Shown here piece by piece: positions 8,941-31,604 of a stretch of 64,000 nt of DNA; within the stretch, counting starts at the first letter, position 1; every line of letters starts with the position of its first letter. The notes beneath the pieces are model-generated. The model saw nothing but the letters and a program-made list of their open reading frames with translations, was not told where the DNA came from and did not search any database. Source of the stretch: an uncultured Alphaproteobacteria bacterium (GTDB lineage Bacteria > Pseudomonadota > Alphaproteobacteria > HIMB59); NCBI GenBank assembly GCA_902546975.1, contig CACCLU010000004.1, positions 89,134 to 153,133 of the forward strand. The letters are read 5' to 3'. The position numbers and the translations under genes are program-made.

Positions 8941-10137
8941 ATGATAGATTATATACAGTTATTTAAAGATAGAAATCTATTCAATCAATGCACTAATGAA
9001 ATAGAACTTAATAATTTACTCAATAAGAAAAAAATTATTTTTTATATTGGATTTGATGCAACTGCTGATGCATTACATGCCGGAAGTCTTGTTCAATTAA
9101 GAGCTATTAAGACTCTAATCAAACATGGTCATCAGGCTATAGTACTATTAGGTGGAGGCACAACAAAAATTGGTGACCCCTCTGGCAAAGATGCCTCAAG
9201 ACAAATTTTAACTTACGAAACAATCCAAAAAAATATTGAGAATTTTAAAAGAATATTTGAACATTATTTTAGAGATTTGAAAGAAAATATAAAATTTATA
9301 AATAATGATCAATGGCTTGATAAATTAAATTACATAGAGTTATTGAGAGATTTGGGAAGTCAAGTTTCAATCAATCGTATGCTTACATTTGAGAGTGTTA
9401 AAGAGAGACTTAAAAGAGAGCAATCATTATCATTTTTAGAATTTAATTACATGATACTCCAAAGTTATGATTTTCTTCACTTAAATAAACATGAAAATTG
9501 TGAGTTGCAAATTGGCGGCTCGGATCAATGGGGTAATATCGTTTTGGGTATGGAAATTATATCAAAAATAAACAAAAAAGATGCTTTTGGTCTGACTACA
9601 CCTCTTTTAACTACCTCTACAGGTAAGAAGATGGGCAAGACCGAGCAAGGCGCTGTCTGGATAGATCAAAATAAATACAGCTCTTACGATTTCTATCAGT
9701 ATTGGAGAAATGTGGATGATAATGATGTGGAAAAACTATTACTTATTTTTAGTGATTTAGACAAAGAAGAAATAAAAATATTAATTAAAGAAGATATCAA
9801 TAATGCGAAAAAAAAATTAGCATATTTAGTGACAACAGATTGTCATTCAGAAAGCTCAGCACATGAGGCTGAAGAAAAAGCAAGATCAATTTTTGAAAAT
9901 AATTCTTTCGATAATATTGATGAAATTAACTTTAAAATAGACTCAAAACTCATAGATACACTAACATCCAATAGTACGGTCTCATCAAAATCTGAAGCAA
10001 AAAGGCTAATCGAGGGTGGTGGTATAAAGATTGACGACGAGCAAATCAACGATATTAATCTTACTATTGATAAGTCTTATAACGGAAAAATACTCAAGAT
10101 TGGTAAAAAAAAATATTTTAAAATTATCGTTAAGTAA
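8941..10137 (+). CDS. tyrS: Tyrosine--tRNA ligase
   Basis: YIGFDATADALHAGS, QIGGSDQWGNI, KMGKT, C-terminal S4 domain. Confidence 0.97.
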   Translation: MIDYIQLFKDRNLFNQCTNEIELNNLLNKKKIIFYIGFDATADALHAGSLVQLRAIKTLIKHGHQAIVLLGGGTTKIGDPSGKDASRQILTYETIQKNIENFKRIFEHYFRDLKENIKFINNDQWLDKLNYIELLRDLGSQVSINRMLTFESVKERLKREQSLSFLEFNYMILQSYDFLHLNKHENCELQIGGSDQWGNIVLGMEIISKINKKDAFGLTTPLLTTSTGKKMGKTEQGAVWIDQNKYSSYDFYQYWRNVDDNDVEKLLLIFSDLDKEEIKILIKEDINNAKKKLAYLVTTDCHSESSAHEAEEKARSIFENNSFDNIDEINFKIDSKLIDTLTSNSTVSSKSEAKRLIEGGGIKIDDEQINDINLTIDKSYNGKILKIGKKKYFKIIVK

Positions 10138-11146
10138 CCAATATATCTTTTATAGCATCATTAACAAAATTTAAATCATCTTTGGACTTACCTTCTCCAG
10201 CATAGTGACCGTAGCTTGAAGGAATGATTCGTAATTCACCATTTTTAATATTTTTTAATTCAATTTCATTATCCTCTGGGGGGAAGTATAAATCATTTTT
10301 ACCTGGCATTAAAATACATCGCGCAGTAATAGAGTTAAGAGCTTTATCAAATTGATTATTAAATTTATTATTGTTGCTAATGTCGTGCTCTTGCCAAGTT
10401 CTTATCATCGCTAATAAATCATTTGCATCCTTACGATAATAAATTCTATTCCAAAGTTTATCCAAAACTTCTTTTGCATCTTTGTAACCATCATCGATAT
10501 ATTTTTTTTCCCTAAACCAGTCTTGCCCATGCGCCCATCCAGCCCATACTCTTGCCATTGTTGTTTTTCCATTTTGAGGTTGTTTTTCATAAATTCCAGA
10601 ATTCCAGTTTGGATCTGAAGTCAAAGCAGCATATACACCCTCTAAAAATACATATGTATGCTCTGTGGTTTTCGCATGACCACACATTGAAATCATATTT
10701 TCTACCATGTCTGGAAAATATGACGCCCACTGAAAAGCTTGTTGTCCTCCCATTGACCAGCCTATTACTAATTTAATTTTTTCTATGTTAAATATTTCTT
10801 TTAGAAGTGTGTATTGTGCTTGCACGTTATCATATATTGTAATTAAGGGAAAATTAGGTCCATTAAAGGGTTTTTCTGTATTACTGGGTGAGGATGAAAC
10901 ACCATTACAAAACATATTTGGAATAATGATGAAATATTTATCTGGATCTATGGGAAAATTATTACCAATCAGATATCCTTGCTCAAGATGTGTACCAGCA
11001 TACCTAGTAGGAAATAAAATTACATTTGATTTGTCAGAATTTAGTTTCCCAAATGCTAAATAATTTAATTGTAAATCTATTATGTCACCTGATTTTAATT
11101 TGAAATTATTTAGTTGGTATTTATGTAGTTCCTCTTTACTAATCAA
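10130..11146 (-). CDS. Homoserine O-acetyltransferase-like (MetX-fold) alpha/beta hydrolase; substrate unknown
   Basis: IIIPNMFCNGVSSSPSN, GWSMGGQQAFQWA nucleophile elbow, DLYFPP Asp, YGHYAG His. Confidence 0.7.
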   Translation of the reverse strand: MISKEELHKYQLNNFKLKSGDIIDLQLNYLAFGKLNSDKSNVILFPTRYAGTHLEQGYLIGNNFPIDPDKYFIIIPNMFCNGVSSSPSNTEKPFNGPNFPLITIYDNVQAQYTLLKEIFNIEKIKLVIGWSMGGQQAFQWASYFPDMVENMISMCGHAKTTEHTYVFLEGVYAALTSDPNWNSGIYEKQPQNGKTTMARVWAGWAHGQDWFREKKYIDDGYKDAKEVLDKLWNRIYYRKDANDLLAMIRTWQEHDISNNNKFNNQFDKALNSITARCILMPGKNDLYFPPEDNEIELKNIKNGELRIIPSSYGHYAGEGKSKDDLNFVNDAIKDILVT

Positions 11147-12544
11147 TTAAAATAACTTTAAATATTCTTTGATTTCCCAATCAGTTGTAGTTGTATGATA
11201 TCTAGACCACTCATCATATTTATATCCAATAAAATTGTTTATCATAGCCTCAGAAAAAACTTTTTTAGTTAATTTATCAGCAGCAAAAGCGTCTACTGCC
11301 TCTAATAAATTTCTTGGCAGTGTAGTAACCTCTTTTTTTTCTTTCTCGGTCAAATCATAAAGACTTTTATTAGTTGGTTTTGGGGGCTTCATTTTTTTGT
11401 CGATACCCTCTGTAACAGCTGCGGCTAATAAAGAAAAAGTTAAATAAGGATTTTGAGTTAAATCAGACGCCCTATTTTCTATACAATATCTATTTTGCGG
11501 TAGTCTTATCATAGCTGATCTATTATTACTGCCGTATGTCATGTGTGTAGGAGCCCATGTATGACGGCCACCATCAAGGCCCTCAACAGTAGGAACAAAT
11601 CCATTATATGAGTTAACAGTTGGGCACGCTAGAGCTGTAATCGCTGCTCCATGTTTTAAAATTCCAGCGACAGCATTGTAGGCTTTATCAGAGAAATTAT
11701 TCCCATTCTTATATATGTTATTATTTTTCTTTTTAATTGATGCCACACTATGATTGATGTGAGCGCCAGCTCTCCAATCACTAATAGTTGTCTTTGGCAT
11801 AAATGATACAAAATATCCATATTTTTTTGCAACTTCCTTTAGTAATACTCTTAAAAATACAAATCTATCAGCCATCCCTAGAATATCTGTGTAACCGAAA
11901 TCTAATTCATACTGGCCATATGCACCCTCAGCAACGACGTCATGGAGATCCCATTTCAAATCATTATTTAAAATATCTATTATTTCTTTTAAAAAATGCA
12001 TTCCATCTATTGAGTACTCTGAGTCATACCCAAAAGCTTGTCTTCTCAAATTTATAGGATCTCTATCAATTGCTTTAACTGGTTTGTCGCCCTCCCACTT
12101 CATTAAGAAAAATTCAGGTTCAATACCAACAAAAAATTTCAAGTCAGATTTAGCGCTTTCCTTTATTTGTTTTTTTAACGTCATTCTCGGGCAAACATCG
12201 TAAGGTTTGTCATTCCAATATAAATCTGCAAAAACCCATGCACATGTTTTATCCCATGGACATATAACAAGACTATCCAAATCTGGCACAGGGATTTGAT
12301 CATTATCTGCTGGGGTTAATTCTGGAACAAAGGAAACAGAATGAACAGCAAATTGAGGGCCTTTACCCATACAAAGATCCTCAAAATCAGATATAGGCAT
12401 AGGCTTAGTTTTTGGACTACCCAGAAAATCAATCCAATTAGAATAAATGTATTTTACTCCTTTTTTTTCTAAATCCTTTTTTATTTTTCTAACTTTTTTT
12501 ACATCAGGTAAGGCGTCTTTAAAATTTTCAAAATATTGACCCAA
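11147..12544 (-). CDS. Glutamine synthetase-like gamma-glutamyl-amine ligase (paralog 3)
   Basis: GIEPEF, GQYELDF, FMPK, HINHS, NNRSAMIRLP, IENRASD..NPY; TTG start with GGAGGAG Shine-Dalgarno; flap reads TWAP rather than EAP. Confidence 0.85.
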   Translation of the reverse strand: MGQYFENFKDALPDVKKVRKIKKDLEKKGVKYIYSNWIDFLGSPKTKPMPISDFEDLCMGKGPQFAVHSVSFVPELTPADNDQIPVPDLDSLVICPWDKTCAWVFADLYWNDKPYDVCPRMTLKKQIKESAKSDLKFFVGIEPEFFLMKWEGDKPVKAIDRDPINLRRQAFGYDSEYSIDGMHFLKEIIDILNNDLKWDLHDVVAEGAYGQYELDFGYTDILGMADRFVFLRVLLKEVAKKYGYFVSFMPKTTISDWRAGAHINHSVASIKKKNNNIYKNGNNFSDKAYNAVAGILKHGAAITALACPTVNSYNGFVPTVEGLDGGRHTWAPTHMTYGSNNRSAMIRLPQNRYCIENRASDLTQNPYLTFSLLAAAVTEGIDKKMKPPKPTNKSLYDLTEKEKKEVTTLPRNLLEAVDAFAADKLTKKVFSEAMINNFIGYKYDEWSRYHTTTTDWEIKEYLKLF

Positions 12545-12620
12545 GTTAGTCTCCTCCTAAAATTTAAATCTTATCGAATTGAAATTATATGACCATAATA
12601 TAAAATTACTACTTCAAATT

Positions 12621-12866
12621 ATGAATATTGATTACTTTAAAAAATCATGGATTAAATTTTACAAAAGAGGCTTTATGATGGGATTCTTTGTTTTAACTTT
12701 TATACTCACTGTTGATCAGTTTTTACAGACACCACTTTTTTTTAGTAAGATTACAGATATAAAAGTATTTATGTTCATTATATCCACTATTTTTTTTGCA
12801 GCAGTGTTTTGTGGTCTTTTAGCAGTGATTTTTTTATCACTAATTATGATCGCTACTAAAAAATAA
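12621..12866 (+). CDS. Small hypothetical membrane protein (ATG start preferred over the upstream TTG at 12579)
   Basis: Fills an otherwise empty gap; two hydrophobic stretches; no recognisable family. Confidence 0.4.
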   Translation: MNIDYFKKSWIKFYKRGFMMGFFVLTFILTVDQFLQTPLFFSKITDIKVFMFIISTIFFAAVFCGLLAVIFLSLIMIATKK

Positions 12867-13607
12867 TTATAATTTAATATTTTCTAACCAATTCAGTAAT
12901 TCAAGTTCTCTGTTAAATTGATCTTCATTTTCAAAACTTTGTAATTTATTTAATAATGCTTCAAATTCATTTTCACTCATAATCTTTAAATAATTTCTTT
13001 TCCAATAACTCATTAATTTACCGATATAGTTGTATGGTAGTTCTGGATGATATTGAGTACAAAATATGTTTTGTTTTTTATGACATATAGATTGAATAGA
13101 ATGATTATTCTCAGAAATTATGTCAAAGTCCTTGGGAAGAGTTTCTAAACTATCGTAATGATGACCAGGGGCAGTAAATAAATTTTTTTTATTTTTATAA
13201 ACAAAATGATTTTTTATAATTTTTATTTTTTCAGAATATCCAAACTCTGGACTCATAGAACTTGATATTTTTCCTCCAAATGCTGTTACAACCACTTGAA
13301 GACCCCAACAACTTCCCCAAATTGGTCTTTCTAGAGTTGCTATTCTATCAAATATCTTCAACTGATTTTTATTGTGATCATTGTCATCATAAATATTACC
13401 GAGACCTCCGGTCCATAAAAAGGCATCGTAATCTTCAAAACTAAATTTATTTACATCCTCAATGTAAGGTTTATAAACCGAGATATTTGAGAGGGGATTT
13501 TGCTTTTTAATAATTTCTTCAAAAAAACTATATTGATAAGAAGAATTTGATTTAACATGTTCATTATCATGGTTTTGATCCATGCCACTGATAATTAGTA
13601 AATTCAA
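12867..13607 (-). CDS. Class I glutamine amidotransferase-like protein (putative gamma-glutamyl-amide hydrolase)
   Basis: WTGG, nucleophile GSCWGLQ, QYHPE; no synthase domain. Confidence 0.85.
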   Translation of the reverse strand: MNLLIISGMDQNHDNEHVKSNSSYQYSFFEEIIKKQNPLSNISVYKPYIEDVNKFSFEDYDAFLWTGGLGNIYDDNDHNKNQLKIFDRIATLERPIWGSCWGLQVVVTAFGGKISSSMSPEFGYSEKIKIIKNHFVYKNKKNLFTAPGHHYDSLETLPKDFDIISENNHSIQSICHKKQNIFCTQYHPELPYNYIGKLMSYWKRNYLKIMSENEFEALLNKLQSFENEDQFNRELELLNWLENIKL

Positions 13608-13616
13608 GTTTTCTGT

Positions 13617-13787
13617 TTATTTATGTCTAGAGAATTTCTTTTTTAAAATCAATTCGTTATCTTTTTTTGCAATTTTTCTTAAAATAAAAATCATAAATGC
13701 AATCCAAATAACTGCTGCTATTAGTTTATTTTCAGCTATTGATTGAATGAGATTTTGAAAAAAGAGATTTGAAGTGTTGTAATCCAT
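13617..13787 (-). CDS. Small single-TM protein (56 aa), not in the ORF track
   Basis: Hand translation MDYNTSNLFFQNLIQSIAENKLIAAVIWIAFMIFILRKIAKKDNELILKKKFSRHK; stop 10 nt before the GATase start. Confidence 0.5.
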   Translation of the reverse strand: MDYNTSNLFFQNLIQSIAENKLIAAVIWIAFMIFILRKIAKKDNELILKKKFSRHK

Positions 13788-13793
13788 TTATTA

Positions 13794-13819
13794 TAAGGCG
13801 GGGATAATTCCCCGCCTTA
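13794..13819. terminator. Perfect 11-bp hairpin after the amt operon
   Basis: TAAGGCGGGGA-taat-TCCCCGCCTTA, GC-rich in an AT-rich background. Confidence 0.7.
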
Positions 13820-13828
13820 AATTATACA

Positions 13829-14002
13829 TTATTTTGTTTTTTTTGCAGTATCAGACTCGTGTCTTGCTGTTGCCATAGTGACTAGCACGCATAGAGCAAT
13901 AACAAAAAGGGTCCAAAATATCAGTGCACCTTCACTGTTGGCATAAGTGAAATAAGCGTCCACACCTTCCCAACTATTTTCAGGTCCTGGAAATGTATTC
14001 AT
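13829..14002 (-). CDS. Small membrane protein (57 aa) co-transcribed with amt, not in the ORF track
   Basis: MNTFPGPENSWEGVDAYFTYANSEGALIFWTLFVIALCVLVTMATARHESDTAKKTK; strong SD AAGGAAGGAG; starts 21 nt after the amt stop. Confidence 0.75.
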   Translation of the reverse strand: MNTFPGPENSWEGVDAYFTYANSEGALIFWTLFVIALCVLVTMATARHESDTAKKTK

Positions 14003-14022
14003 ATTTTCTCCTTCCTTATATG

Positions 14023-15300
14023 TTACTGATATGCCTTGAGATTTAACTCAGCGCTATCAATACCTGCTTTTTGAACTGCATCTGGTACACGTAACCAATT
14101 CATCATTTTCATAATGAATGATAAACCATAACCAGGCACAAATCCTACTAAGAACATGACTATACATCCAACTAACTGTCCACCAAAACTTGTTGGAGGA
14201 ATATCACCAGATGCTGGATAGCCTGAAGCAAATAATCCCATTGCAATCACACCCCATATACCGGCAACTCCATGAACAGATATAGCTCCTACTGGATCAT
14301 CAATCTTGAAAACACTGTGTAACCAATTATTCGCAGGAATAATTATAACACCGCCAACAAAACCGAGAACAAAGGCTAATCCTGGATACCAAACATCAAG
14401 CCCAGACGCACAGGAGAAAATACCTGCAAGACCACCTGACATCATCCAGAATGGGTTACCTTTACTCATCCAGAATGCACCAATCATTCCTCCACCTAGA
14501 CCCATGAGGGTATTGAAAGCGAAAGATGATAATGTTGCTGGAGCACCGTAAATGTTTATCCATCCACCAAACTCTGCACCTGCCCAGATTAAACAACCAC
14601 CGAGGAATCCGAAGAAACCAACAATAATCATTAAAAGACCAATAAATGAGAAACGAAGATCATGACCCTCAATCTCATTCGCAGAACCGTCAGCATTGTA
14701 TTTACCAACTCTAGGTCCTAAGTTTAAGACAACTCCGAAAGCAAACCAACCTGCTACCATGTGAACAACACCAGCTGCTCCAACATCATGATATCCGAAT
14801 TGTGTTACTAACCAACCATCAGGATGCCAGCCCCATGAAGCGGCTAAGATCCATGCTACAGACCCTAAAACAACAGCCAAGAAAGTAAATGAGCTAATTC
14901 TTATTCTCTCAAGAACAGATCCTGAAAAAATAGATGCTGTAGTACAAGCAAATAATGTAAATGCTGCCCAGAAAACACCTGTGGCTTGGTCACTTAACAT
15001 TGGCCCCATAGATACATTCCATGGAGTACCATAACCGTCAAGTGCTATTGGAGTAAATCCCTCTGGAAATGCAAGATAAATATACCAACCAAATAACCAG
15101 AAGGTTGGTATCATAAACGCGAACGCTAAAAGGTTTTTTGTAGCTGAAGAGACCGCGTTTTTAAAACGAGACGATCCTACTTCATACATCAAGAAACCTA
15201 CGTGAATTGCAATCATTAACGCAGTACACCACCAATAGTAAGCTTCCATACTGACGTTCGCTTGCATCATCACGTACGATTCAAGTTCTTCAAGTGTCAT
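14023..15300 (-). CDS. amt: Amt-family ammonium/methylammonium transporter
   Basis: About 11 TM segments, twin His (GVVHMVAG, ISVHGVAG), DDPVGA, GxxER; SD AGGAGG. Confidence 0.92.
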   Translation of the reverse strand: MTLEELESYVMMQANVSMEAYYWWCTALMIAIHVGFLMYEVGSSRFKNAVSSATKNLLAFAFMIPTFWLFGWYIYLAFPEGFTPIALDGYGTPWNVSMGPMLSDQATGVFWAAFTLFACTTASIFSGSVLERIRISSFTFLAVVLGSVAWILAASWGWHPDGWLVTQFGYHDVGAAGVVHMVAGWFAFGVVLNLGPRVGKYNADGSANEIEGHDLRFSFIGLLMIIVGFFGFLGGCLIWAGAEFGGWINIYGAPATLSSFAFNTLMGLGGGMIGAFWMSKGNPFWMMSGGLAGIFSCASGLDVWYPGLAFVLGFVGGVIIIPANNWLHSVFKIDDPVGAISVHGVAGIWGVIAMGLFASGYPASGDIPPTSFGGQLVGCIVMFLVGFVPGYGLSFIMKMMNWLRVPDAVQKAGIDSAELNLKAYQ

Positions 15301-15533
15301 TATATGACCTCCTTATTAATTATTACTTTTTATTTTTATAAAAATAAAAAAGAACAGAGAAAAAATCTTTTTACAACTTTTTAGAATCTTCTTTCCTGTA
15401 CTTTTATGTATTTTACTTTTAATTGACTTAATTATAAAATCAAAAGAGATTAATTAATGTTAAAAAAAGATTGAGTTCAATTGTTTTTTTAATGGTATGC
15501 ACGATTTGCATATTTAGATAGAGGAGATATATA

Positions 15534-16841
15534 ATGGCAACTAACCTTCACCAATTTGCAAAAAAAAATGGTGTTAAATATTTTTTTGTAAGCTTTGTAG
15601 ATTTATTTGGAGTGCTCAGATCAAAGCTTGTACCTGCAACAGCTATAGATGAAATTCAATCTGAAGGTGCTGGATTTGCTGGTTTTGCAACATGGCTTGA
15701 TATGTCTCCAGCTGACTCTGATATGTTTGGTATGCCTGATGGTGATAGTGTTATCCAGCTTCCTTGGAATAAAGAAATAGCTTGGGTTGCCTCAGATTTG
15801 TTTATGGATGGTAAACCAGTAGAAACCTCACCCAGAATAGCCTTAAAAAGACAAATAGAAAAAGCAGCTAAAAAAAATCTTTATATGAAGTCAGGTGTTG
15901 AGTGTGAATTTTTTCTAGTTAATGAAGATGGGACTTCTTTATCAGATCAAAGGGATACGCAAGCAAAACCATGCTATGACTCCTCTGCATTAATGAGAAG
16001 ATATGATGTTATTACTGAAATATGTGACTCAATGATCTCACTTGGATGGAAACCTTACCAAAACGACCATGAGGATGCGAATGGTCAATTTGAAATGAAC
16101 TGGGATTTTTCAGATTGTTTAGTAACTGCAGATAGACATGCTTTTTTTAAATTCATGGTGAAATCTATTGCAGAAAAACATTCATTAAGGGCGACTTTCA
16201 TGCCCAAACCTTTCACAAATTTAACAGGCAATGGATGTCATTGTCATATTTCTATTTGGGATAAATCTGGCAAAAAAAATATGTTTTTAGATAAAAAAGA
16301 TGAATTAGGTTTATCCAAAACTGGTTACAATTTCTTAGGTGGAATAATGGAAAGTGCGGACAAAATGGCTGCTGTTTTTAATCCAACTGTAAACTCCTAT
16401 AAAAGAATTAACGGTAGTGTTACAACATCAGGTGCAACTTGGTCACCAAGTTCGATTACTTGGGCAGGTAACAACAGAACACACATGGTAAGAGTTCCTG
16501 GAGCAGGAAGATTTGAATTGAGATTAATGGATGGAGCTACAAATCCTTATTTACTTCAAGCAGGTATTTTACTTTTAGGATTGGACGGTTTAAATAATAA
16601 AAGAGACCCTGGTAAAAGATTAGATATTAATATGTACACAGAGGGTCACAAGGCTGGAAAAGTAAAGAAATTGCCATTAAATCTTCTTGATGCAATACGT
16701 GATTTTGATAAATCAAAAATCATTAGAGCAGGTTTTGGTGATGATTTAGTTAATAGCTATGTCAAACTAAAAAATCAAGATTGGGGTACTTTTAATAAAT
16801 ACCTTTCTAATTGGGAAAGAGAAACAACTCTAGATTGTTAA
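15534..16841 (+). CDS. gmaS: Gamma-glutamylmethylamide synthetase (GlnT/type III-annotated GS)
   Basis: GAGFAGFATWLDMSP, NDHEDANGQFEMNW, SGATWSP; methylamine-cluster context. Confidence 0.88.
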   Translation: MATNLHQFAKKNGVKYFFVSFVDLFGVLRSKLVPATAIDEIQSEGAGFAGFATWLDMSPADSDMFGMPDGDSVIQLPWNKEIAWVASDLFMDGKPVETSPRIALKRQIEKAAKKNLYMKSGVECEFFLVNEDGTSLSDQRDTQAKPCYDSSALMRRYDVITEICDSMISLGWKPYQNDHEDANGQFEMNWDFSDCLVTADRHAFFKFMVKSIAEKHSLRATFMPKPFTNLTGNGCHCHISIWDKSGKKNMFLDKKDELGLSKTGYNFLGGIMESADKMAAVFNPTVNSYKRINGSVTTSGATWSPSSITWAGNNRTHMVRVPGAGRFELRLMDGATNPYLLQAGILLLGLDGLNNKRDPGKRLDINMYTEGHKAGKVKKLPLNLLDAIRDFDKSKIIRAGFGDDLVNSYVKLKNQDWGTFNKYLSNWERETTLDC

Positions 16842-16848
16842 ATTATTT

Positions 16849-17403
16849 ATGACACCTGAAGTTTTACAAGAAAAGTTTCTTGATTGGCAATGTCAATCTA
16901 GAATTCAGGCATTTAGAACACAAAATGGCAGACCAAATTCATCTATGGCACCTATATTGCTTGATAAGAAAGGAAATGAACTTCTAAGAATTATTGTTGT
17001 AATTTCGGAAAATGATCCTGTAAACACTACAAAACTGTTTGAACACACTTTTAAACGAACTTACGATCCTGCTGATCGATTTGATAAAATGAATAAATTT
17101 TTATCTTCTGAATATTTTATGGATAAAGATAAATTTTCAGACTCTTTATTTGCTACTTTTCCAAAAAACTCAAGTATCTCAAAAAAAGTAGTTAAAGACG
17201 GCTCATGTATCTTAGATTTTATTCACCTTTCTACAAATTATAGATTGTCATGCTCTCCTTTTATTCTCGATAAAAATGAGGAACATTGGGAAAATATTTT
17301 TTGGCATAATAAAAATTTTAATTCTGGTTTGGGAAATGACATTGATGTTATAAAATTTATTCCAAACTGGAAAAAATCTAAATTAATAAGAATTAAAGAT
17401 TAA
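16849..17403 (+). CDS. Hypothetical protein co-transcribed with gmaS
   Basis: 184-aa ORF starting 7 nt after the gmaS stop and followed by a hairpin. Confidence 0.75.
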   Translation: MTPEVLQEKFLDWQCQSRIQAFRTQNGRPNSSMAPILLDKKGNELLRIIVVISENDPVNTTKLFEHTFKRTYDPADRFDKMNKFLSSEYFMDKDKFSDSLFATFPKNSSISKKVVKDGSCILDFIHLSTNYRLSCSPFILDKNEEHWENIFWHNKNFNSGLGNDIDVIKFIPNWKKSKLIRIKD

Positions 17404-17416
17404 AATATTTGAAAGT

Positions 17417-17440
17417 ATAAGGGAGCAAAGGCTCCCTTAT
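17417..17440. terminator. Hairpin between convergent operons, probably a bidirectional terminator
   Basis: ATAAGGGAGC-aaag-GCTCCCTTAT. Confidence 0.75.
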
Positions 17441-17450
17441 TTATAAAATT

Positions 17451-17927
17451 TTACTCAACTAACTTAAAGTTCTCACCCTTAGCGTATGTTCTTTTTAACT
17501 GTACCAAGGGATGATTAGGTGACATTTGAAACTTAATTAAAAGTTCTCTTGCTAACATATCTCTGTCTTGTTGGTTTTTTGGAAGTTTAATCTTCTTTGG
17601 TAAAGTTATCCAAGCGTTTGCATTTCTGTCAAACACAGCAGGGGTATCGCCTTCAAAACCCATATGGATGTCCTCTAACCAATTTAAATCATCCCAACCC
17701 ATAATTTCGATATATTGTTTAAGAAATGGTGTTAAGTGCTTGTAATCAGGAATTAGGTTAACATCATAACGATAGCCAATATGCTGGCCAATCATTTTTT
17801 CTCTTGATGTTTTAATTTCCTTATCTTTTAATTTAGCTCCGCCGACAACTTGATAACCTTTTGACTTAGTAGGTTTTTTTGATTTTGCAGAAGTTGATTT
17901 CTTTTTTGTAACTTTCTTTTTAACCAT
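17451..17927 (-). CDS. Hypothetical protein with Lys-rich N-terminal tail
   Basis: SD AGGAG; last gene of the 23893-17451 operon. Confidence 0.75.
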   Translation of the reverse strand: MVKKKVTKKKSTSAKSKKPTKSKGYQVVGGAKLKDKEIKTSREKMIGQHIGYRYDVNLIPDYKHLTPFLKQYIEIMGWDDLNWLEDIHMGFEGDTPAVFDRNANAWITLPKKIKLPKNQQDRDMLARELLIKFQMSPNHPLVQLKRTYAKGENFKLVE

Positions 17928-17936
17928 AATACTCTC

Positions 17937-19271
17937 CTAAATTGAGTGGTAGTTATCTACACCTACTGTTAAATCTGTACCAGCCAATGGAACTTTAGCC
18001 ATTGCTGATGACTCCATTGTCAATGCAGCTAGATCTTCTGGCTCAAGTGAGTGAATGTTTGTCTTACCACATGCTCTTGCTAACATTTGGCACTCAAGAG
18101 TCATAGTGCTAAGCAAATTATAAACTCTCTCTGCTGCCTCTGTTGGGTCTAATCTACTTCTAAGAACAGGATCCTGTGTGGCCACACCAACTGGACATCT
18201 ACCAGTATGGCAGTGATAGCAGTAACCTGCCTCCACTCCCATTTCTTTTTCATAATCAGCTTCTGGAATATCTTTGTTACAGTTCAGTGCTACTAATCCA
18301 GCTGTACCGATAGCAATAGCATCTGCACCAAGAGCTAAGGCTTTAGCCATATCAGCTCCATCTCTAATACCTCCAGCAAATACCAATGATATTTCACCAG
18401 TTTTACCAACATCGTCCAAAGCTCTTCTTGCTTCTCTAATTGCCCCAATACCAGGAATACCAGTATTAGCTGCTGCGATGTGTGGGCCAGCTGCTGTTGA
18501 GCCTTCCATAGAGTCTAAAAATATAGAGTCAGGGTCACATTTTGCTGCCATTCTGACATCGTCATAAACTCTTGATGCACCTAATTTCAATTGAATTGGC
18601 ACTTGATTGTCAGTTAATTCTCTTAATTCTTGAACCTTAAGAGCTAAATCGTCCGGTCCCATCCAGTCTGGGTGTCTAGCAGGGGATCTTTGATCAATAC
18701 CAGCAGGTAATGATCTCATCTCAGCTACTTGGTCAGTAACTTTCTGGCCCATTAAGTGACCACCCATCCCAACTTTTTGACCTTGGCCAATGAAAACCTC
18801 AATAGCGTCAGCTAATTGAGCATGGTGTGGGTTGAAGCCATACCTGGATTGAATACATTGATAATACCATTTGTGAGAGTACCTTCTCTCATCAGGTATC
18901 ATACCCCCTTCTCCAGAGCAAGTTGCACTTCCAGCCATTGATGAACCTCTAGCTAAAGCAGTTTTTGCTTCATAAGAAAGAGCACCAAAACTCATACTTG
19001 TTATGTAAACAGGAATATCAAGTTTGATAGGATTTTTTGCTCTAGGGCCTATTATTGTTTCTGTTAGACACTTCTCTCTGTAACCTTCAATAACAAATCT
19101 TGTTAATGTGCCTGGTAAAAAAACTAAATCATCCCAGTGAGGAATTTTTTTCATTAACGCCATACCACGCATACGATAACGACCAAGTTGTGATTTGATA
19201 TGAATGTCGTCCATTACCTCGGGGGTAAAAATTGAGTTTTGTCCTAATAATTGTGTATTACGTTTTGCCAT
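17937..19271 (-). CDS. FMN-binding glutamate synthase-family subunit (MgsC paralog retaining Cys cluster)
   Basis: SMSFGALS, SGEGG, GQGQKVGMGGHL, SPARHPD, CYHCHTGRCPVGVATQD. Confidence 0.88.
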   Translation of the reverse strand: MAKRNTQLLGQNSIFTPEVMDDIHIKSQLGRYRMRGMALMKKIPHWDDLVFLPGTLTRFVIEGYREKCLTETIIGPRAKNPIKLDIPVYITSMSFGALSYEAKTALARGSSMAGSATCSGEGGMIPDERRYSHKWYYQCIQSRYGFNPHHAQLADAIEVFIGQGQKVGMGGHLMGQKVTDQVAEMRSLPAGIDQRSPARHPDWMGPDDLALKVQELRELTDNQVPIQLKLGASRVYDDVRMAAKCDPDSIFLDSMEGSTAAGPHIAAANTGIPGIGAIREARRALDDVGKTGEISLVFAGGIRDGADMAKALALGADAIAIGTAGLVALNCNKDIPEADYEKEMGVEAGYCYHCHTGRCPVGVATQDPVLRSRLDPTEAAERVYNLLSTMTLECQMLARACGKTNIHSLEPEDLAALTMESSAMAKVPLAGTDLTVGVDNYHSI

Positions 19272-20107
19272 TAGCCTAATATTCCTTTCTTTTCTGCTGG
19301 CTCTAGATTGTCATAATTCCAGAGCATTCTTCCTGCAACGTATTTCTTAAATTTTGAAGCTGGGACCTTGCAATCAATCTCAGCATTTTTAATTTTTTGT
19401 TCTAGCCATCTAACCTCGTGTTCATTCATTTCACCAGGTACGCAGTCTGTTCCAAGCGAATGAGGCTCCCCTCCTACAAAAATGATTCCATCATACATTG
19501 AGTCACCCATGTTTGCGTTTACATCACCACAAACGATAATTCTTCCTCTTTGCATCATAAATCCAGTGTAAGCTCCAGCATTTCCGCCAATAAGAATAGT
19601 GCCACCTTTCATATCAATTCCAGTTCTTGCACCTGCATCGCCTTTAACTATAAGGTCACCGCCTCTAAGAGCAGCTCCAAAACAAGATCCTGCATTGTTT
19701 TCAACAACAACTTTTCCTGACATCATATTTTCAGCACATGACCAACCAACTCTTCCGTTAACTCTCACTGTTGGTCCATCGATACAACCGATACCAAAAT
19801 AACCTAAGCTACCCTCAAAGATTAAGTTTAACTTATTTAGAATTCCCACACCAAGTGAATGTTTTGCACCAGGGTTTTTAATAACTATAGACCCATATCC
19901 CTTTCGAATTGCATCTCTGATTTTTTGATTCAATTCATGAGCATCAATGCCTTCACAATCAATGGAGGTTCTTTTATTAAAATCAACTTCGTGATTACCG
20001 TAGTAGGTATAATTTTCTTCTTCTGTTACTTCAAAATATAATTTTTGCGATCTACCTGATAAATTTTCATCATCAAAAGCAGTAGTTCTTTTTGTTATGC
20101 CTGCCAT
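19271..20107 (-). CDS. GXGXG-domain protein (MgsB/GltB3 paralog) with N-terminal extension
   Basis: Repeated G-x-G-x-G beta-helix motifs (GDAGARTGIDMKGG, GNAGAYTGFMMQRG). Confidence 0.85.
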   Translation of the reverse strand: MAGITKRTTAFDDENLSGRSQKLYFEVTEEENYTYYGNHEVDFNKRTSIDCEGIDAHELNQKIRDAIRKGYGSIVIKNPGAKHSLGVGILNKLNLIFEGSLGYFGIGCIDGPTVRVNGRVGWSCAENMMSGKVVVENNAGSCFGAALRGGDLIVKGDAGARTGIDMKGGTILIGGNAGAYTGFMMQRGRIIVCGDVNANMGDSMYDGIIFVGGEPHSLGTDCVPGEMNEHEVRWLEQKIKNAEIDCKVPASKFKKYVAGRMLWNYDNLEPAEKKGILG

Positions 20108-21036
20108 ACTTTTACCTCCGCTTCATAAGGGTCATATGTTTTAATTTCGTGAGGAAATATATTCCTAATTGCAACTTCCTCTGATGCACATGCTACGATG
20201 TCTTTACTTTCGTAGATTACCATTGGCTTAGCGGCCATATGGTCTTTTGCCATTCCCAACTGATCCTTTGTTGCTACAACATATGTAAAAACTCCATCGA
20301 GCTCATCCAAGCTATCATGCATAGCTTTTTCTAGTTCAATGCCGTTAGCCATCTTATCAGCTATATAGACAGCAATTATTTCTGAGTCACAATTTGAATT
20401 AAACCTGTAACCTTTTCTTTCAAGTACTCTTCGATTGCCCCAATAGTTAGTCAATTGACCATTATGAACAACTGACACATCCTCAAAAGGAAAAGCCCAA
20501 TAAGGGTGTGCGGATTTAATATCTACATCAGACTCGGTAGCCATCCTTGTATGGCCAATACCGTGGGTACCCATAAATTTATCAAGGCCATATTGATTGG
20601 ATACAGTATTTGCATCGCCTAAGTCTTTAATGAGCTCAAGACCCTTACCAATAGATAAAATTTCAGTTTTTTCGACTGTTTCTATCTCAGTAGCCAAATC
20701 TGTGAGGTCACCTTTAAAATCAAATATATATCTGAAAGCGTATGGGGTGCTGGAGCTTTCTTTTGTTACTTTAGCACCATGTTTTTTTAAAATAGAGTCG
20801 ACAGCATTTTTTCTATTTTTTAAATCAGCAGGTGAGTCGACAGTTGCATTTACCTTTTCAGCCTCGTTTTCAGATATTTTAAATCTCATTACAAAGCCTT
20901 TTTTTAAAGGTGTTCCGTACATAGCATATCCTGTTGAGTCAGGTCCCCTATGTTTAAGACCTTGTAACATAAGGCCCATTTGTTCACCGACGTTGACTGT
21001 CTTCTTTTTATTTATAACTCCAGCTATTCCACACAT
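20095..21036 (-). CDS. Class II (Ntn) glutamine amidotransferase (MgsA paralog)
   Basis: N-terminal MCGIAG, HRGPDSTG, GHTRMATES, HNGQLTN, DSE. Confidence 0.88.
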   Translation of the reverse strand: MCGIAGVINKKKTVNVGEQMGLMLQGLKHRGPDSTGYAMYGTPLKKGFVMRFKISENEAEKVNATVDSPADLKNRKNAVDSILKKHGAKVTKESSSTPYAFRYIFDFKGDLTDLATEIETVEKTEILSIGKGLELIKDLGDANTVSNQYGLDKFMGTHGIGHTRMATESDVDIKSAHPYWAFPFEDVSVVHNGQLTNYWGNRRVLERKGYRFNSNCDSEIIAVYIADKMANGIELEKAMHDSLDELDGVFTYVVATKDQLGMAKDHMAAKPMVIYESKDIVACASEEVAIRNIFPHEIKTYDPYEAEVKVWQA

Positions 21037-21055
21037 ACTTTTCTCCTATCTTATC

Positions 21056-22525
21056 TTATGGTAAGCAATCTAGGTATTTATCGAGATCCCATTGAGTCGG
21101 AGTTGCTAAAAATTCTTCCCACTCATCTCTTTTATACTCCATAAACACTTTCATCATGTCACCTGGTAGAGCATCTTGTATTACCTTATCGGTTTCTAAT
21201 CGATCTAATGCCTCACCAAGAGTCATTGGTAATTTTTCAACTTGCTTACCAGCTTTCATTTGTTCATACATATTTTGTTGTTCAGGTTTGCCTGGATCCA
21301 TTTTCTTTGAAATACCATGGTCGAATGCTTTCAACAGGCCGCTTCCCATTAAGTATGGGTTGTGGGCTGAGTCAACTGATCGATATTCAAATCTACCAGG
21401 GGCAGATACCCTTAAACCACAGGTTCTGTTTTGATATCCCCAGTCCGCATAAACTGGAGCCCAAAAACCTGTATCCCAAAGTCTTCTATATGAATTCACA
21501 GTTGAGGAACCCAAGGCTGTTAAAGCAGGAAGGTGTTCCATGACACCACCAATTGCTTGAAGGCCTATTTTTCCAGGAATTCTTCTATCTTTTCCGTCCG
21601 GCATAAAGACATTTGTACCTCCCCTACGGTGATGAAATACATTTTCCATACCTGGGATAGTCTTGTTACCACATGGTATTAACTCATCTTTTCCGCCCTT
21701 CCAGAGTGAAATATTTGTGTGACACCCAGAAGCAGACACGCCAACAAATGGCTTACTCAGAAAACAAGCAATCAAATTAAATTCTCTTGCTACTTGAGCA
21801 CAGATTTGTCTGTAAGTTGATAACCTGTCAGCGTTTCTAACAACATCATCGTAGTTGAAATTTAGTTCTAATTGTCCAGGCGCGTCCTCATGGTCACCTT
21901 GGATAATGTCCAAACCCATTGCACGTGAATACTCAATTACTTTCATGTAAACAGGTCTTAATGATTCAAATTGATCAATGTGATAGCAGTAAGGCTTAGA
22001 GAAACCTGAGCCAGTCGGTGAACCATCTTCGTTTTTTGTTAACCACATCATTTCAGGTTCTGTCCCTGCTCGTAATTCTAGTTTGTGTTTCTTTTTAAAT
22101 TCTTCATGGGCTCTTTTTAAGTTACCTCTGCAATCAGATGTAAGATATCCACCAGGATCTTTTTCTTCTTCCCTGTTTCTAAAACAAGTACAAAAAACTC
22201 TGGCAATTCTTTTATCCCATGGAATTTGAACAAATGTTTCAGGGTCAGGTATACCCACTAATTCGTGAGCCTCTGGTCCATAACCTATGTAATCACCATG
22301 TCTATTTGTAAATAGATTAGCAGTAGCTCCATAAACTAATTGGAAACCTTTATTGGCTACACTCTCCCAATGATCTGCAGGAACACCTTTACCTACAATT
22401 CGACCTGTAACAGAAATAAATTGATAATAAATGTACTCAATTCCTAATTTATCAATTTTTTTTCTAACTTGTTTTATATAGTCTTGTCTCTTTTTATCCT
22501 TAACGTACGTTTCTAGCGCTGTCAT
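21056..22525 (-). CDS. Glutamine synthetase-like gamma-glutamyl-amine ligase (paralog 2, GMAS-like)
   Basis: GTEPEM, GDHEDAPGQLE, SASGCH, FWAP, NRTCGLR, FEYRSVD..NPY. Confidence 0.85.
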   Translation of the reverse strand: MTALETYVKDKKRQDYIKQVRKKIDKLGIEYIYYQFISVTGRIVGKGVPADHWESVANKGFQLVYGATANLFTNRHGDYIGYGPEAHELVGIPDPETFVQIPWDKRIARVFCTCFRNREEEKDPGGYLTSDCRGNLKRAHEEFKKKHKLELRAGTEPEMMWLTKNEDGSPTGSGFSKPYCYHIDQFESLRPVYMKVIEYSRAMGLDIIQGDHEDAPGQLELNFNYDDVVRNADRLSTYRQICAQVAREFNLIACFLSKPFVGVSASGCHTNISLWKGGKDELIPCGNKTIPGMENVFHHRRGGTNVFMPDGKDRRIPGKIGLQAIGGVMEHLPALTALGSSTVNSYRRLWDTGFWAPVYADWGYQNRTCGLRVSAPGRFEYRSVDSAHNPYLMGSGLLKAFDHGISKKMDPGKPEQQNMYEQMKAGKQVEKLPMTLGEALDRLETDKVIQDALPGDMMKVFMEYKRDEWEEFLATPTQWDLDKYLDCLP

Positions 22526-22546
22526 TTTATTCCTCCTCCTTTTACA

Positions 22547-23893
22547 TCAACTCCAAGGGAACGGGCTCTTTGAAACCGGATGTAACTTCCCTTCTTCATA
22601 ACGAGAAAATCTAAAAGGTTCTAGAATTTCAGATTTCTCACCAAGTAACTCATTAGATACAAGATCACCTAACCCAGCCATTTTGTATCCATGGTTTGCA
22701 TCAGCTATAATATATACGTTTTCTCTGTATCGGTCGAATACGGGAAAACGATCTGGAGTAACACAGCCAATACCGCCAGCTTTTTGCTTTTTGTATTTAG
22801 CGTGACATCCATCAAATTGCTTTTGGCAAAAAGCCAAAGCTGAGGTCCATTTATCCTCAAAAGAAGCCCTAGGTTGAAACTCATCTGAGTCATGACCATA
22901 AGGGTCAAGACTTATGTCGTTTACAGGTTTATTTATGTCATAAGGAGAGGAGCCGCCTTGTATACCATCTCTGTAGACATCGGGCTTATAGTAAAAACCC
23001 CACATAACATTTTCATGTATAACATCTCCTGTTTTATTTGAGACAAGTGTAGCTTCTGTATCAACATGAATAACTGGGTACTCTGTTCCGTTTGCTGTTT
23101 TATAACTTCTTGGATCAACTTCCAACTCACCCTCTTCAAGCGCCATGTATGACCACATAGGTATATCATCAGTAAATGAACCATCAGGTTTTTTTATTTT
23201 TACGGTGTTAGGTAATTCTAAAATTTCCCAAAATTTTCTTACCCAAGGGCCAGCCGCAACAACTAATTGAGTGCATTCAATTTTACCCTCTGAAGTTTCT
23301 ACAGCCGAAACTGCTCCACTACCATTAGAAGAAATTAAATTGTTAACAGTCACACCTTCTAAAACTTTTGCTCCAGCTGATACTGCTAACTTATGGAAGC
23401 CCTCTATAGCTCCTCTATTAGCTCCATATCCTGTTTTCTTTTCGTGTAAAACTGAAGTGATGCCTTGAGCTTGCCAATCTGGCAACATGTCTTTCATATA
23501 CTTATCACAATCTGATGCTCCCTCGATAAACTCAGAGTCAAATCCTATTTCTTTTTGCTGCTCATAAACTTCAGACATGCCCTCTTGCATAAGCTCGGAG
23601 TTGATCTGCATGTAGCCAACTGGCTTGTAAGTTAAAGCCTCAGCATTCTCATTCCAAACATTTACAGAATGAGCCATTAGTCTTCTCATTGCAGGCTGGT
23701 AGTAGTTGTTCCTTACAATTCCACATGCAACACCACTTGCTCCATTTGCAACTTTGGATTTTTCCAAAACGACTACAGAATTTTCTTTGAGTTGGCCTTT
23801 GCTGGATAATTTTTTACAAAGATGCCATGCGGTGCTCAGACCGTGAATTCCAGCCCCGATTATTAAATAGTCACATTTAGTAGGTAAGCTCAT
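22547..23893 (-). CDS. FAD-dependent oxidoreductase, DAO/SoxB superfamily (start moved to ATG 23893)
   Basis: GAGIHGLSTAWHL Rossmann motif, GASGVACG; SD GGAGG precedes ATG at 23893. Confidence 0.85.
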   Translation of the reverse strand: MSLPTKCDYLIIGAGIHGLSTAWHLCKKLSSKGQLKENSVVVLEKSKVANGASGVACGIVRNNYYQPAMRRLMAHSVNVWNENAEALTYKPVGYMQINSELMQEGMSEVYEQQKEIGFDSEFIEGASDCDKYMKDMLPDWQAQGITSVLHEKKTGYGANRGAIEGFHKLAVSAGAKVLEGVTVNNLISSNGSGAVSAVETSEGKIECTQLVVAAGPWVRKFWEILELPNTVKIKKPDGSFTDDIPMWSYMALEEGELEVDPRSYKTANGTEYPVIHVDTEATLVSNKTGDVIHENVMWGFYYKPDVYRDGIQGGSSPYDINKPVNDISLDPYGHDSDEFQPRASFEDKWTSALAFCQKQFDGCHAKYKKQKAGGIGCVTPDRFPVFDRYRENVYIIADANHGYKMAGLGDLVSNELLGEKSEILEPFRFSRYEEGKLHPVSKSPFPWS

Positions 23894-23952
23894 TATTTTA
23901 GTAACCTCCAAGCAGTTACATTTTGTCTGTGAGGTATGAAAAAAACACATTT

Positions 23953-23971
23953 TGTTTCATATTATGAAACA
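23953..23971. promoter_or_regulatory. Palindromic operator TGTTTCAT-ATT-ATGAAACA (perfect copy)
   Basis: Perfect inverted repeat upstream of the extra mgs-like operon; the same motif occurs at 24799, 32918 and 42246. Confidence 0.75.
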
Positions 23972-24010
23972 AAATTTTTATAAAAATCTATTATTTATCA
24001 ACAATAATCG

Positions 24011-24781
24011 TCAATTGGCAACAATTAGTCGAGAAATTTTAATCGAGGCAGATTGAAGGAGATCGACATAATACATCATAGTTTTTGGGTTTAAAATATT
24101 TTTACTTCCTGATAAAGCGATTCCGGCAAATGATCTTTTATCTTTGTCTAAAATAGCAACTCCTATTCCATAAGAGTTTTCAAAAGCTTCTCCATGATTA
24201 AGTGCATAACCGTTAGTTCTAATTTTGCCTAGTTGTCTTTTTAAATCATTTAAATTTGTAATTGTATTGTTTGTGTGTGGATAAAAATTATAACTACGAT
24301 AAATTGTTGCAATTTCATTTTCAGGTCTGTAAGCAAGCATGACTTTTCCCAAAGCACAGCAATGAGCGTCAAGTCTCATTCTAAAAGTTCTAATAGTTGC
24401 ATCATCATTGTTGTCAGAAATTTTATCAGAATGAACTATTTGAGATCCTTCAAGCATTGCCAAATAGGTAATTAAATTCGTTTTACTAGAGACCTCTTTT
24501 AGAATTTCTTTAGAAGTCTCAGAAATTGACTGAAGATAATCTGAGGTTTCTCCAAATTGAAAAGCTTTATGCCCCATAGTGTATGTATTCGATCCAGTAT
24601 TTTTATGGATATAACCAAGTTGAGATAAAACAGACAATAGTCTAAATGTAGTTGTTCTAGATAAAATTGCTTTTCTGGAAATATTCGATGCCTTCAACGG
24701 GAAAATTGATTTTGATAAAATTTCAAGAATTTTAAAAGATTTTTCCAGAGATTTATTTATATATTTTAAATTTTGTTGCAA
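24011..24781 (-). CDS. IclR family transcriptional regulator
   Basis: N-terminal KSLEKSFKILE..HTH (LSRTTTFRLLSVL..LGY), AHCCALGKVMLA, IRTNGYA; TTG start with GGAGG SD. Confidence 0.92.
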   Translation of the reverse strand: MQQNLKYINKSLEKSFKILEILSKSIFPLKASNISRKAILSRTTTFRLLSVLSQLGYIHKNTGSNTYTMGHKAFQFGETSDYLQSISETSKEILKEVSSKTNLITYLAMLEGSQIVHSDKISDNNDDATIRTFRMRLDAHCCALGKVMLAYRPENEIATIYRSYNFYPHTNNTITNLNDLKRQLGKIRTNGYALNHGEAFENSYGIGVAILDKDKRSFAGIALSGSKNILNPKTMMYYVDLLQSASIKISRLIVAN

Positions 24782-31336: not shown

Positions 31337-31601
31337 TAAAGTCCTCGTTCATTTTACACGTATCAAAAATTTCATGTGTAGCGGTGTCTCTTGAGACTTT
31401 AAACCATTGTCTACATCCAGAAACATGATGCCATAGTTCTGAATGTTTTCCTCTTGGGTTGTCTCTGTAGTAAACAAAATTATCCCAATCCTCGGTTGAA
31501 ATTTCTTCTCCTAGTTGAGGTCTTTTTATAGTGGCGTCTCCGCCATAAGAAAATTCATTTTGTGAGCGCTTGCCACAGTATGGGCATTTTATTTCTAACA
31601 T
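31329..31601 (-). CDS. soxD: Sarcosine oxidase delta subunit
   Basis: CPYCG and WHHVSGCRQWF zinc ligands. Confidence 0.93.
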   Translation of the reverse strand: MLEIKCPYCGKRSQNEFSYGGDATIKRPQLGEEISTEDWDNFVYYRDNPRGKHSELWHHVSGCRQWFKVSRDTATHEIFDTCKMNEDFNV

Positions 31602-31604
31602 CTA

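Follow-up and report, generated by a model that had tools for sequence, protein, structure and literature searches.

Three glutamine synthetase-like genes in the methylated-amine island of a HIMB59-type alphaproteobacterium probably encode carboxylate-amine ligases of a Trp-flap radiation

The window analysed here is a stretch of 64,000 nucleotides from an uncultured alphaproteobacterium of the HIMB59 lineage (GenBank assembly GCA_902546975.1, contig CACCLU010000004.1, positions 89,134 to 153,133), whose genome of 1.29 Mb lies in 12 contigs and is 94% complete. The window is a low-GC (~32%) methylated-amine island and holds three genes for proteins of the glutamine synthetase (GS) fold: gmaS, for γ-glutamylmethylamide synthetase, and two genes for orphan GS-like ligases, here called GS-B and GS-C (Table 1). 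Judged from alignments and gene context, the three probably encode active, ATP-dependent carboxylate-amine ligases of the GS-I fold that belong to a GmaS-like radiation with a Trp-bearing flap. None of them would be the assimilatory GS; GS-B would serve dimethylamine (DMA), and GS-C appears to be remodelled.

Table 1. Features of the methylated-amine island and GS-family genes elsewhere in the genome (positions are those of the window unless a contig is named; GATase, glutamine amidotransferase; FMN, flavin mononucleotide)
Feature	Position	Strand	Family or remark
MetX-like α/β hydrolase or acyltransferase	10130..11146	-	NF005757, 424 bits (cut-off 332); abuts GS-C
GS-C, orphan GS-like ligase, 465 aa	11147..12544	-	PF00120; TTG start
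GS-C flap motif GRHTWAP (Trp330)	11549..11569	-	longest flap of the three
GS-C NSYNG	11600..11614	-	Gly315 replaces Arg321, the binder of the glutamate α-carboxylate
GS-C DWRAGAHIN	11753..11779	-	Trp257 and Arg258 at the Asn264 and Gly265 positions; Asn264 at the His271 position
GS-C HDVVAEGAYGQYELDF	11897..11944	-	amine pocket: Q175 to Asp202, D177 to Val204, N188 to Asp215
Class I glutamine-amidotransferase-like protein	12867..13607	-	PF00117 and Peptidase_C26; upstream of GS-C
amt	14023-15300		between gmaS and GS-C
gmaS, γ-glutamylmethylamide synthetase, 435 aa	15534..16841	+	TIGR03105
GmaS flap motif SGATWSP	16428..16448	+	Trp303 = RhGmaS Trp300
184-aa protein	16849-17403	+	no Pfam family
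GS-B operon (second operon)	23950 down to 17451		DAO flavoprotein, GS-like ligase, class II GATase, GXGXG, FMN glutamate-synthase-like, 158-aa protein
158-aa protein, GS-B module	17451-17927	-	no Pfam family; lysine-rich N-terminus
FMN glutamate-synthase-like protein, GS-B module	17937-19271	-	Pfam
GXGXG protein, GS-B module	19271-20107	-	Pfam
Class II GATase, GS-B module	20095-21036	-	Pfam
GS-B, orphan GS-like ligase, 489 aa, module gene 2	21056..22525	-	PF00120
GS-B flap motif DTGFWAP (Trp355)	21455..21475	-	aligned to GS PGYEAP
GS-B 39-residue insertion (residues 279-317)	21575..21691	-	after the His269 strand
GS-B QGDHEDAPGQLELNF	21857..21901	-	Gln209, Asp211, Glu213, Glu220, Asn222 = RhGmaS Q175, D177, E179, E186, N188
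DAO-family flavoprotein, GS-B module gene 1	22547..23950	-	PF01266
mgsABC	24852-27735		
mgdABCD-like genes	27741-32861		
tmm	33035-34369		
tdm	35733-38084		
IclR regulator	in the methylated-amine island		
Canonical glnA (outside the window)	C4:81267-82682		
Other GS-family genes outside the window	C3:51004-52374, C9:3601-4968, C3:260727-262121		

Residue numbers for GS follow the S. typhimurium/E. coli enzyme. The proteins were aligned with HMMER to solved GS and GmaS structures and with MAFFT together with E. coli GlnA and PuuA. A sequence-only reading of the window had placed a Trp where true GS carries the flap residue Glu327, and in the alignments the Trp of SGATWSP, DTGFWAP and GRHTWAP indeed falls in the Glu327 column of GmaS, GS-B and GS-C, respectively. 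The Asp50′ column holds Ala in GmaS and GS-C and Val in GS-B, and Ser53′ is missing from GmaS and GS-B, while the genome's own GlnA and E. coli GlnA keep D, S and E. The flap Trp occurs in 120 of 120 GS-B orthologs and 119 of 120 GS-C orthologs and is therefore not a chance substitution. The metal ligands E129, E131, E212, E220, H269 and E357 are retained in all three proteins, as had been proposed, and so are the phosphate-binding arginines R339, R344 and R359; both sets are invariant in orthologs. The accompanying statement that the ATP ligands are retained holds for most of them, but not for H271, which is Asn in GS-B and GS-C. Of 53 true GS sampled, 12 carry the same Asn, which marks it as a natural variant. 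The three proteins had also been described as amine γ-glutamyl ligases with differently shaped amine pockets. The amine sites do differ: the spacer between the NSY(K/R)R motif and the flap residue is 11 residues in GmaS, 6 in GS-B and 14 in GS-C (5 in GS), the Asp50′ loop departs from that of E. coli GlnA by +0, +10 and +2 residues, and the first-shell amine pocket is identical to that of RhGmaS at 7/7, 7/7 and 4/7 positions. The term γ-glutamyl, however, is unsafe for GS-C, which combines R321G with G265R.

The first of the three genes is an orthodox gmaS. Its product is the only one to pass the TIGR03105 cut-off of 469.6 bits, with 643, aligns over its full length to RhGmaS (7CQL, E 1.7e-183) and retains all seven residues of the methylamine pocket; it would make γ-glutamylmethylamide. 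GS-B and GS-C share with the solved GmaS enzymes (RhGmaS, PDB 7CQL-7CQX; MmGmaS, 9QUR) the GS-I fold, Trp for the flap Glu, the lack of Asp50′ and Lys30′ contributed by the neighbouring subunit, and MmGmaS is the best solved match of both, in sequence as well as in fold. They differ from these enzymes in scoring only 301 and 359 bits against TIGR03105 and in being 26-31% identical to them. E. coli PuuA groups with the three other GS-like genes of this genome and not with those of the window, whose products score 242 (GmaS), 228 (GS-B) and 182 (GS-C) bits against the PuuA model NF045547 (cut-off 650). PuuA and the NpaA1/AtdA1 type of enzyme ("GoaS") resemble the three proteins in having lost the flap Glu and Asp50′ while keeping the metal site, with an aromatic flap residue that is Tyr in E. 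coli PuuA. The substrate loop of NpaA1 sits where GS-B has its long loop from the neighbouring subunit. NpaA1 (8WWU) differs in its weaker match, 86-138 bits versus 193-334 bits for MmGmaS.

The Trp flap is not a special trait of this locus. In RhGmaS, the flap residue is Trp300, equivalent to Glu304 of B. subtilis GS, and Asp50′ has given way to Ala48′; the flap loop only gates the active site, proton transfers are performed by D177 and E186, and methylamine is held by Y147, Q175, D177, E179, E186, N188 and K30′ (Wang 2021, PMC7948447). The same loss is shared by glutamyl-organic-amine synthetases in general (NpaA1 paper, PMC11335346). A tree of 133 sequences combined the seven GS-family proteins of the genome with GlnA and PuuA of E. 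coli, with members sampled from the two orphan families and with the closest representatives, clustered at 50% identity, out of 1.84 billion proteins; NpaA1 was compared through the scores of its solved structure. In this tree all true GS form one clan (support 1.0) that carries D50, S53 and E327 almost without exception, and all three window proteins fall outside it. Among the non-GS representatives 47 of 53 (89%) have the flap Trp, so that the feature does not discriminate within the radiation. The six GS-like proteins of the genome have W, W, W, W, F and Y at the flap, and E. coli PuuA has Y. The Trp flap is thus a signature of a large clade and not a peculiarity of these three genes. The cluster-member names of ten representative relatives read only "glutamine synthetase (family protein)" and gave no functional lead. 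Literature searches on HIMB59 GmaS, on SAR11_1305 and on a GS-like DMA route in Pelagibacter brought up no study of the function of either GS-B or GS-C.

That none of the three is an ammonia-assimilating GS is supported by several lines of evidence. Against the GlnA model TIGR00653, with its curated cut-off of 429 bits, GmaS scores 278, GS-B 247 and GS-C 274; Asp50′ and Glu327 are lost; and a canonical glnA is present elsewhere in the genome, ~7 kb upstream of window position 1. The latter encodes FDGSS, HHEVA, NGSGMHCH, NSYKRLVPGYEAP, the PGYEAP flap and the NLYDLP adenylylation motif, and groups with E. coli GlnA. Compared with GlnA type I (E. coli/S. typhimurium, B. subtilis), the three proteins share the fold, both catalytic sites (two-metal and ATP) and the chemistry through an acyl phosphate, but lie outside the true-GS clan. 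By analogy with RhGmaS, the acid substrate would be phosphorylated on the conserved two-metal site, and the organic amine would be deprotonated by an active-site carboxylate instead of Asp50′. The tetrahedral intermediate would then be resolved by the Glu220 equivalent instead of a flap glutamate, with the Trp-bearing flap acting only as a hydrophobic lid.

GS-B matches PF00120 but falls below every NCBIfam cut-off. It is 71-76% identical among this genome, Pelagibacter, Geminicoccaceae, Gammaproteobacteria and two complete genomes of other alphaproteobacterial families, and its Pelagibacter/SAR11 cluster holds 4,125 member sequences. The signature DHEDAPGQ that had been noted as common to GS-B and GmaS is present, and GS-B reads QGDHEDAPGQLELNF, like GmaS. 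Its seven amine-pocket residues are Lys46, Tyr181, Gln209, Asp211, Glu213, Glu220 and Asn222, and the pocket is essentially invariant in 120 orthologs. GS-B also keeps Arg321 and a small residue at position 265, as does GmaS. It differs from GmaS in its shorter flap spacer, in the Asp50′ loop around residues 69-88, which exceeds that of GS or GmaS by 10 residues, and in a 39-residue insertion that is absent from all other aligned sequences, those of GS and GmaS included. In the AlphaFold 2 (AF2) model, which has a mean predicted local distance difference test score (pLDDT) of 89 and a predicted template modelling score of 0.91, the insertion forms an ordered β/α element (pLDDT ~90) that could cover the ATP site or dock to other proteins of the module. 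The flap has a low pLDDT (65-76), as expected of a mobile lid. The best fold match of the model is 9QUR, identified as MmGmaS (PMC12588301), level with archaeal and Gram-positive GS.

The gene order DAO, GS-B, GATase, GXGXG, FMN subunit and 158-aa protein is conserved in four other, unrelated genomes. In these the DAO gene lies directly upstream of GS-B with 48-54% identity (L009, L010, L020, L021), the FMN subunit is 78-82% identical and the 158-aa protein 68-70%. The last is always found 3′ of the FMN subunit gene, which makes it the sixth conserved gene of the module. In two of the four genomes tdm lies directly downstream of the module, and elsewhere amt, tmm or mgd-like genes adjoin it. 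The 184-aa protein encoded beside the module has counterparts in G200 and G012, two complete genomes from other families, where they adjoin the module and are 30-32% identical. The module follows the logic of the N-methylglutamate pathway (GmaS, MgsABC, MgdABCD), with a ligase, MgsABC-like proteins and a putative N-alkylglutamate oxidase. It differs in that its ligase is diverged, that a monomeric DAO protein takes the place of Mgd with its four subunits, and that the 158-aa protein comes in addition.

All three complete GS-B carriers that were checked (this genome, G200 and G012) have an orthodox GmaS, and neither DmmA nor DmmC was found in any of them. The occurrence of these genes was also surveyed in 401 evenly drawn Pseudomonadota genomes, with a DmmC query from a Rhizobium plasmid annotated with dmmA. 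Full-length Tdm is present in 22 of these genomes: 20 have DmmC without GS-B, two have GS-B without DmmC, and none has both or neither. Of 30 genomes from the sister family of this genus, six carry GS-B, and precisely these six carry Tdm, with 1.5-5 kb between the two genes; DmmC gave no match in the 61 genomes of the order. Among Tdm carriers the GS-B module occurs in genomes without DmmC, and it has no homology to DmmABC. The Rhizobium leguminosarum plasmid NZ_CP022667.1 (L026, 124358-154703) carries a compact soil-bacterial methylated-amine cluster with tdm, a tmm-like oxidoreductase gene, dmmC (DUF3445), dmmB (PDR/VanB), dmmA, dmmD (aminomethyltransferase), purU, glnT (gmaS) and mgs. It is a useful point of comparison for what the module would replace.

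SAR11 bacteria lack dmmDABC, and their DMA route has been questioned and described as a "metabolic bottleneck" (Lidbury 2017; Smith 2013). The Km of RhGmaS for DMA is 16 mM, so that it handles DMA ~600-fold worse than monomethylamine by Km, and a dedicated DMA enzyme is therefore plausible. Because the module accompanies tdm and occurs in the absence of dmm, DMA is the leading candidate substrate, and GS-B would most likely glutamylate the DMA that Tdm releases, within a six-gene module that parallels GmaS/MgsABC/Mgd. The amidotransferase/FMN enzyme would pass the amine to an acceptor derived from 2-oxoglutarate, and the DAO flavoprotein would remove one methyl group, feeding the ordinary N-methylglutamate route. 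In its full form, this proposal makes GS-B a glutamate-dimethylamine ligase at the entry of a glutamate-linked DMA pathway that replaces the DMA monooxygenase in SAR11, HIMB59-type and other pelagic bacteria. We put it forward tentatively, as a possible reading that falls short of a probable one.

GS-C likewise matches PF00120 and stays below all NCBIfam cut-offs. Its orthologs from marine genomes, those of the Thioglobus type among them, are ~60% identical; one on a Rhodobacteraceae plasmid is 54% identical. The AF2 model (pLDDT 90) has MmGmaS as its best fold match, with a template modelling score of 0.94. Both features singled out before, VAEGAYGQ and the altered glutamate-binding segment DWRAGAHIN, are present, and GS-C reads VVAEGAYGQYELDF. 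Overlooked in the sequence-only reading was a further change, NSYNG in place of NSYKR, which amounts to the loss of Arg321. GS-C keeps Glu131, the contact of the α-amino group, but has Gly321 and Trp264-Arg265 at the site of the glutamate α-carboxylate. In its amine pocket three of the seven residues differ from GmaS (Q175D, D177V, N188D), and these changes are conserved across orthologs; W264, R265, N271 and G321 are each found in 120 of 120. The Arg265/Gly321 swap extends to relatives at 32-52% identity, and in the tree set the combination R265/G321 occurs 14 times, R/R never and G/G once. Since Arg265 and Gly321 co-vary, the anchoring arginine appears to have moved from position 321 to 265 rather than to have been lost.

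The MetX-like α/β hydrolase, which lies beside or near GS-C orthologs in seven other contexts (L013, L014, L015, L016, L022, L023, L032), is a conserved partner of GS-C. The class I amidotransferase was also considered as a hydrolase partner and was rejected: none of the eight other contexts examined has it next to GS-C, relatives of 84% identity included, and it probably lies outside the GS-C unit. A gap of 322 bp (12545-12866) separates its gene from that of GS-C, while GS-C and the hydrolase abut, an arrangement that fits two separate units. Elsewhere the pair is found among genes for Rieske oxygenases, VOC/glyoxalase, cupin, 2-hydroxyacid dehydrogenase or methylmalonyl-CoA enzymes. The combination of ligase, oxygenases and hydrolase around the pair in other genomes is like that of the aniline and isopropylamine routes and of the PuuA/NpaA1/AtdA1 enzymes. 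In one marine genome (GCA_902606745.1) a second GS-like gene, for a protein of 437 residues, lies between the GS-C ortholog and the MetX-like hydrolase gene (L022:9566-10879). GS-C would work with the hydrolase on some nitrogen compound, and its acid substrate may be either glutamate held differently or another carboxylate.

Several observations weigh against these assignments. Few independent lineages underlie the complementarity with Dmm, since DmmC comes from five families of the phylum sample and GS-B from two; among such mutually related genomes the association of GS-B, Tdm and Dmm is suggestive, not proven. In the genus of this bacterium, four metagenome-assembled genomes with Tdm have no GS-B match and two with GS-B have no Tdm match, all being 81-94% complete. 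G200 has GS-B with only Tdm-like fragments nearby. The two short fragments, with matches over 143 and 87 aa, lie at L020:15112-15785; this complete genome gives no match to Tdm in full length and has the GS-B module, gmaS, amt and mgd-like genes. The fragments may be a decayed tdm or a different gene of GcvT type. The HIMB59-type GS-C locus is without the Rieske oxygenases seen in other genomes. Alignments and published GmaS structures, and not coordinates of these proteins, are the source of the roles given to the flap Trp, as a lid, and to the relocated Arg, and the substrates of GS-B and GS-C are all ones that we infer. In addition, GS-B keeps all seven residues of the RhGmaS methylamine pocket, including the proposed bases D177 and E186, and could equally be a methylamine or ethylamine enzyme. 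Because this first shell is unchanged, a second methylamine (or ethylamine or ammonia) ligase remains a serious rival, if a rather unlikely one, with the module as a redundant or differently regulated N-methylglutamate pathway, for example for nitrogen scavenging. The module mirrors GmaS/MgsABC/Mgd gene for gene, and nitrogen limitation strongly induces SAR11_1304, which is the SAR11 ortholog of the flavoprotein encoded next to GS-B; SAR11_1305, however, the glnT numbered next to it, is not induced (Smith 2013). A redundant GmaS copy would be unexpected in streamlined genomes of 1.2-1.4 Mb when all complete carriers checked already have GmaS. The module tracks tdm rather than gmaS and is complementary to dmm, and the flap, the neighbour loop and the insertion of GS-B are all unlike those of GmaS.

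For GS-C, the corresponding alternative is that it is not a γ-glutamyl ligase at all, activating a carboxylate other than L-glutamate for the amine or taking part in an acyl-transfer route with its MetX-like partner. The co-varying replacement of Arg321 by Gly and of Asn264-Gly265 by Trp-Arg favours it, as do the origin of the partner in a family of CoA-dependent O-acyltransferases and the frequent methylmalonyl-CoA or 2-hydroxyacid enzymes among the neighbours. Still, GS-C keeps Glu131, Arg359 and the entire metal site, a positive charge persists in the pocket so that glutamate could bind from the other side, and every characterised enzyme of the GS fold uses glutamate (PMC11335346). We regard this alternative as doubtful, with GS-C as the first GS-fold ligase for another acid being a possibility. 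That one or more of the three is instead a low-affinity "GlnT/GSIII" glutamine synthetase that aids ammonium assimilation, as SAR11 annotations would have it, is very unlikely. The NCBIfam title of TIGR03105 is "type III glutamate--ammonia ligase", an amt gene lies in the island, and with NH4+ RhGmaS forms glutamine at the kcat that it has for methylamine (~4 s-1), but its Km is 8.7 mM for NH4+ versus 27 µM for methylamine. Such a preference for methylamine at micromolar Km is known for RhGmaS, MmGmaS and a few other enzymes. Moreover, the ammonium-site residues Asp50′ and Glu327 are gone from all three proteins and Ser53′ from GmaS and GS-B, a canonical glnA is available, and in SAR11 a response to nitrogen limitation is seen for glnA only, and for neither of the two "glnT" genes (Smith 2013). 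Because RhGmaS uses NH4+ at full kcat, an over-expressed enzyme of this kind could complement a glnA mutant at high ammonium without being the cellular GS. Complementation, which the sequence-only reading had named as a refutation, would thus be non-discriminating. GS paralogs with non-enzymatic roles are known in other organisms, which counts for the view that GS-B or GS-C is a catalytically dead, regulatory or structural protein. Yet the 120 orthologs of each show no variation in the six metal ligands, in the arginines that bind phosphate or in the carboxylates proposed to be catalytic, at 60-76% identity between bacterial classes, and the AF2 models are confident, complete GS subunits; we consider that view extremely improbable.

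The genome has seven PF00120 genes, one canonical glnA and six for GS-like ligases. In the three GS-like proteins encoded outside the window the flap residue is Phe, Trp (with an EEG insert) and Tyr. One of their genes lies within an operon of aldehyde dehydrogenase, GS-like and iron-containing alcohol dehydrogenase genes, one adjoins genes for a polyamine-type ABC transporter and a DAO protein, and one is near genes for a glutathione S-transferase (GST), a fatty-acid desaturase, a 3-hydroxyacyl-CoA dehydrogenase and a TauD/γ-butyrobetaine-hydroxylase-like protein. Within the genus GS-B is found in 24 of 30 genomes and GS-C in 23 of 30, spaced as in the window, and genomes have 6-8 GS-family candidates each, compared with 2-6 in the sister family. 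A promoter and terminator scan of positions 10000-24200 gave no more sites than shuffled sequence and was uninformative for the limits of the operons.

The sequence-only reading is right in outline and adds little to what is published on GmaS; it is too specific for GS-C and misses the main lead on GS-B. The Trp flap itself only bears out a published rule by which amine ligases can be told from true GS, and this rule continues to help where the widespread "glutamine synthetase / glnT" annotations need correction. The value of the locus lies in its two conserved orphan families. GS-B is very abundant in ocean metagenomes and stands at the point where the fate of DMA in SAR11-type bacteria is in question; if the DMA assignment is true, it would close the reported bottleneck in marine methylated-amine degradation. 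In GS-C, the arginine that anchors the substrate appears to have been relocated in a coordinated way within a very old enzyme fold, which may mark a new substrate class. A genome of 1.29 Mb that encodes one GlnA and six GS-like ligases suggests that the glutamylation of amines is a major strategy by which this streamlined lineage acquires nitrogen.

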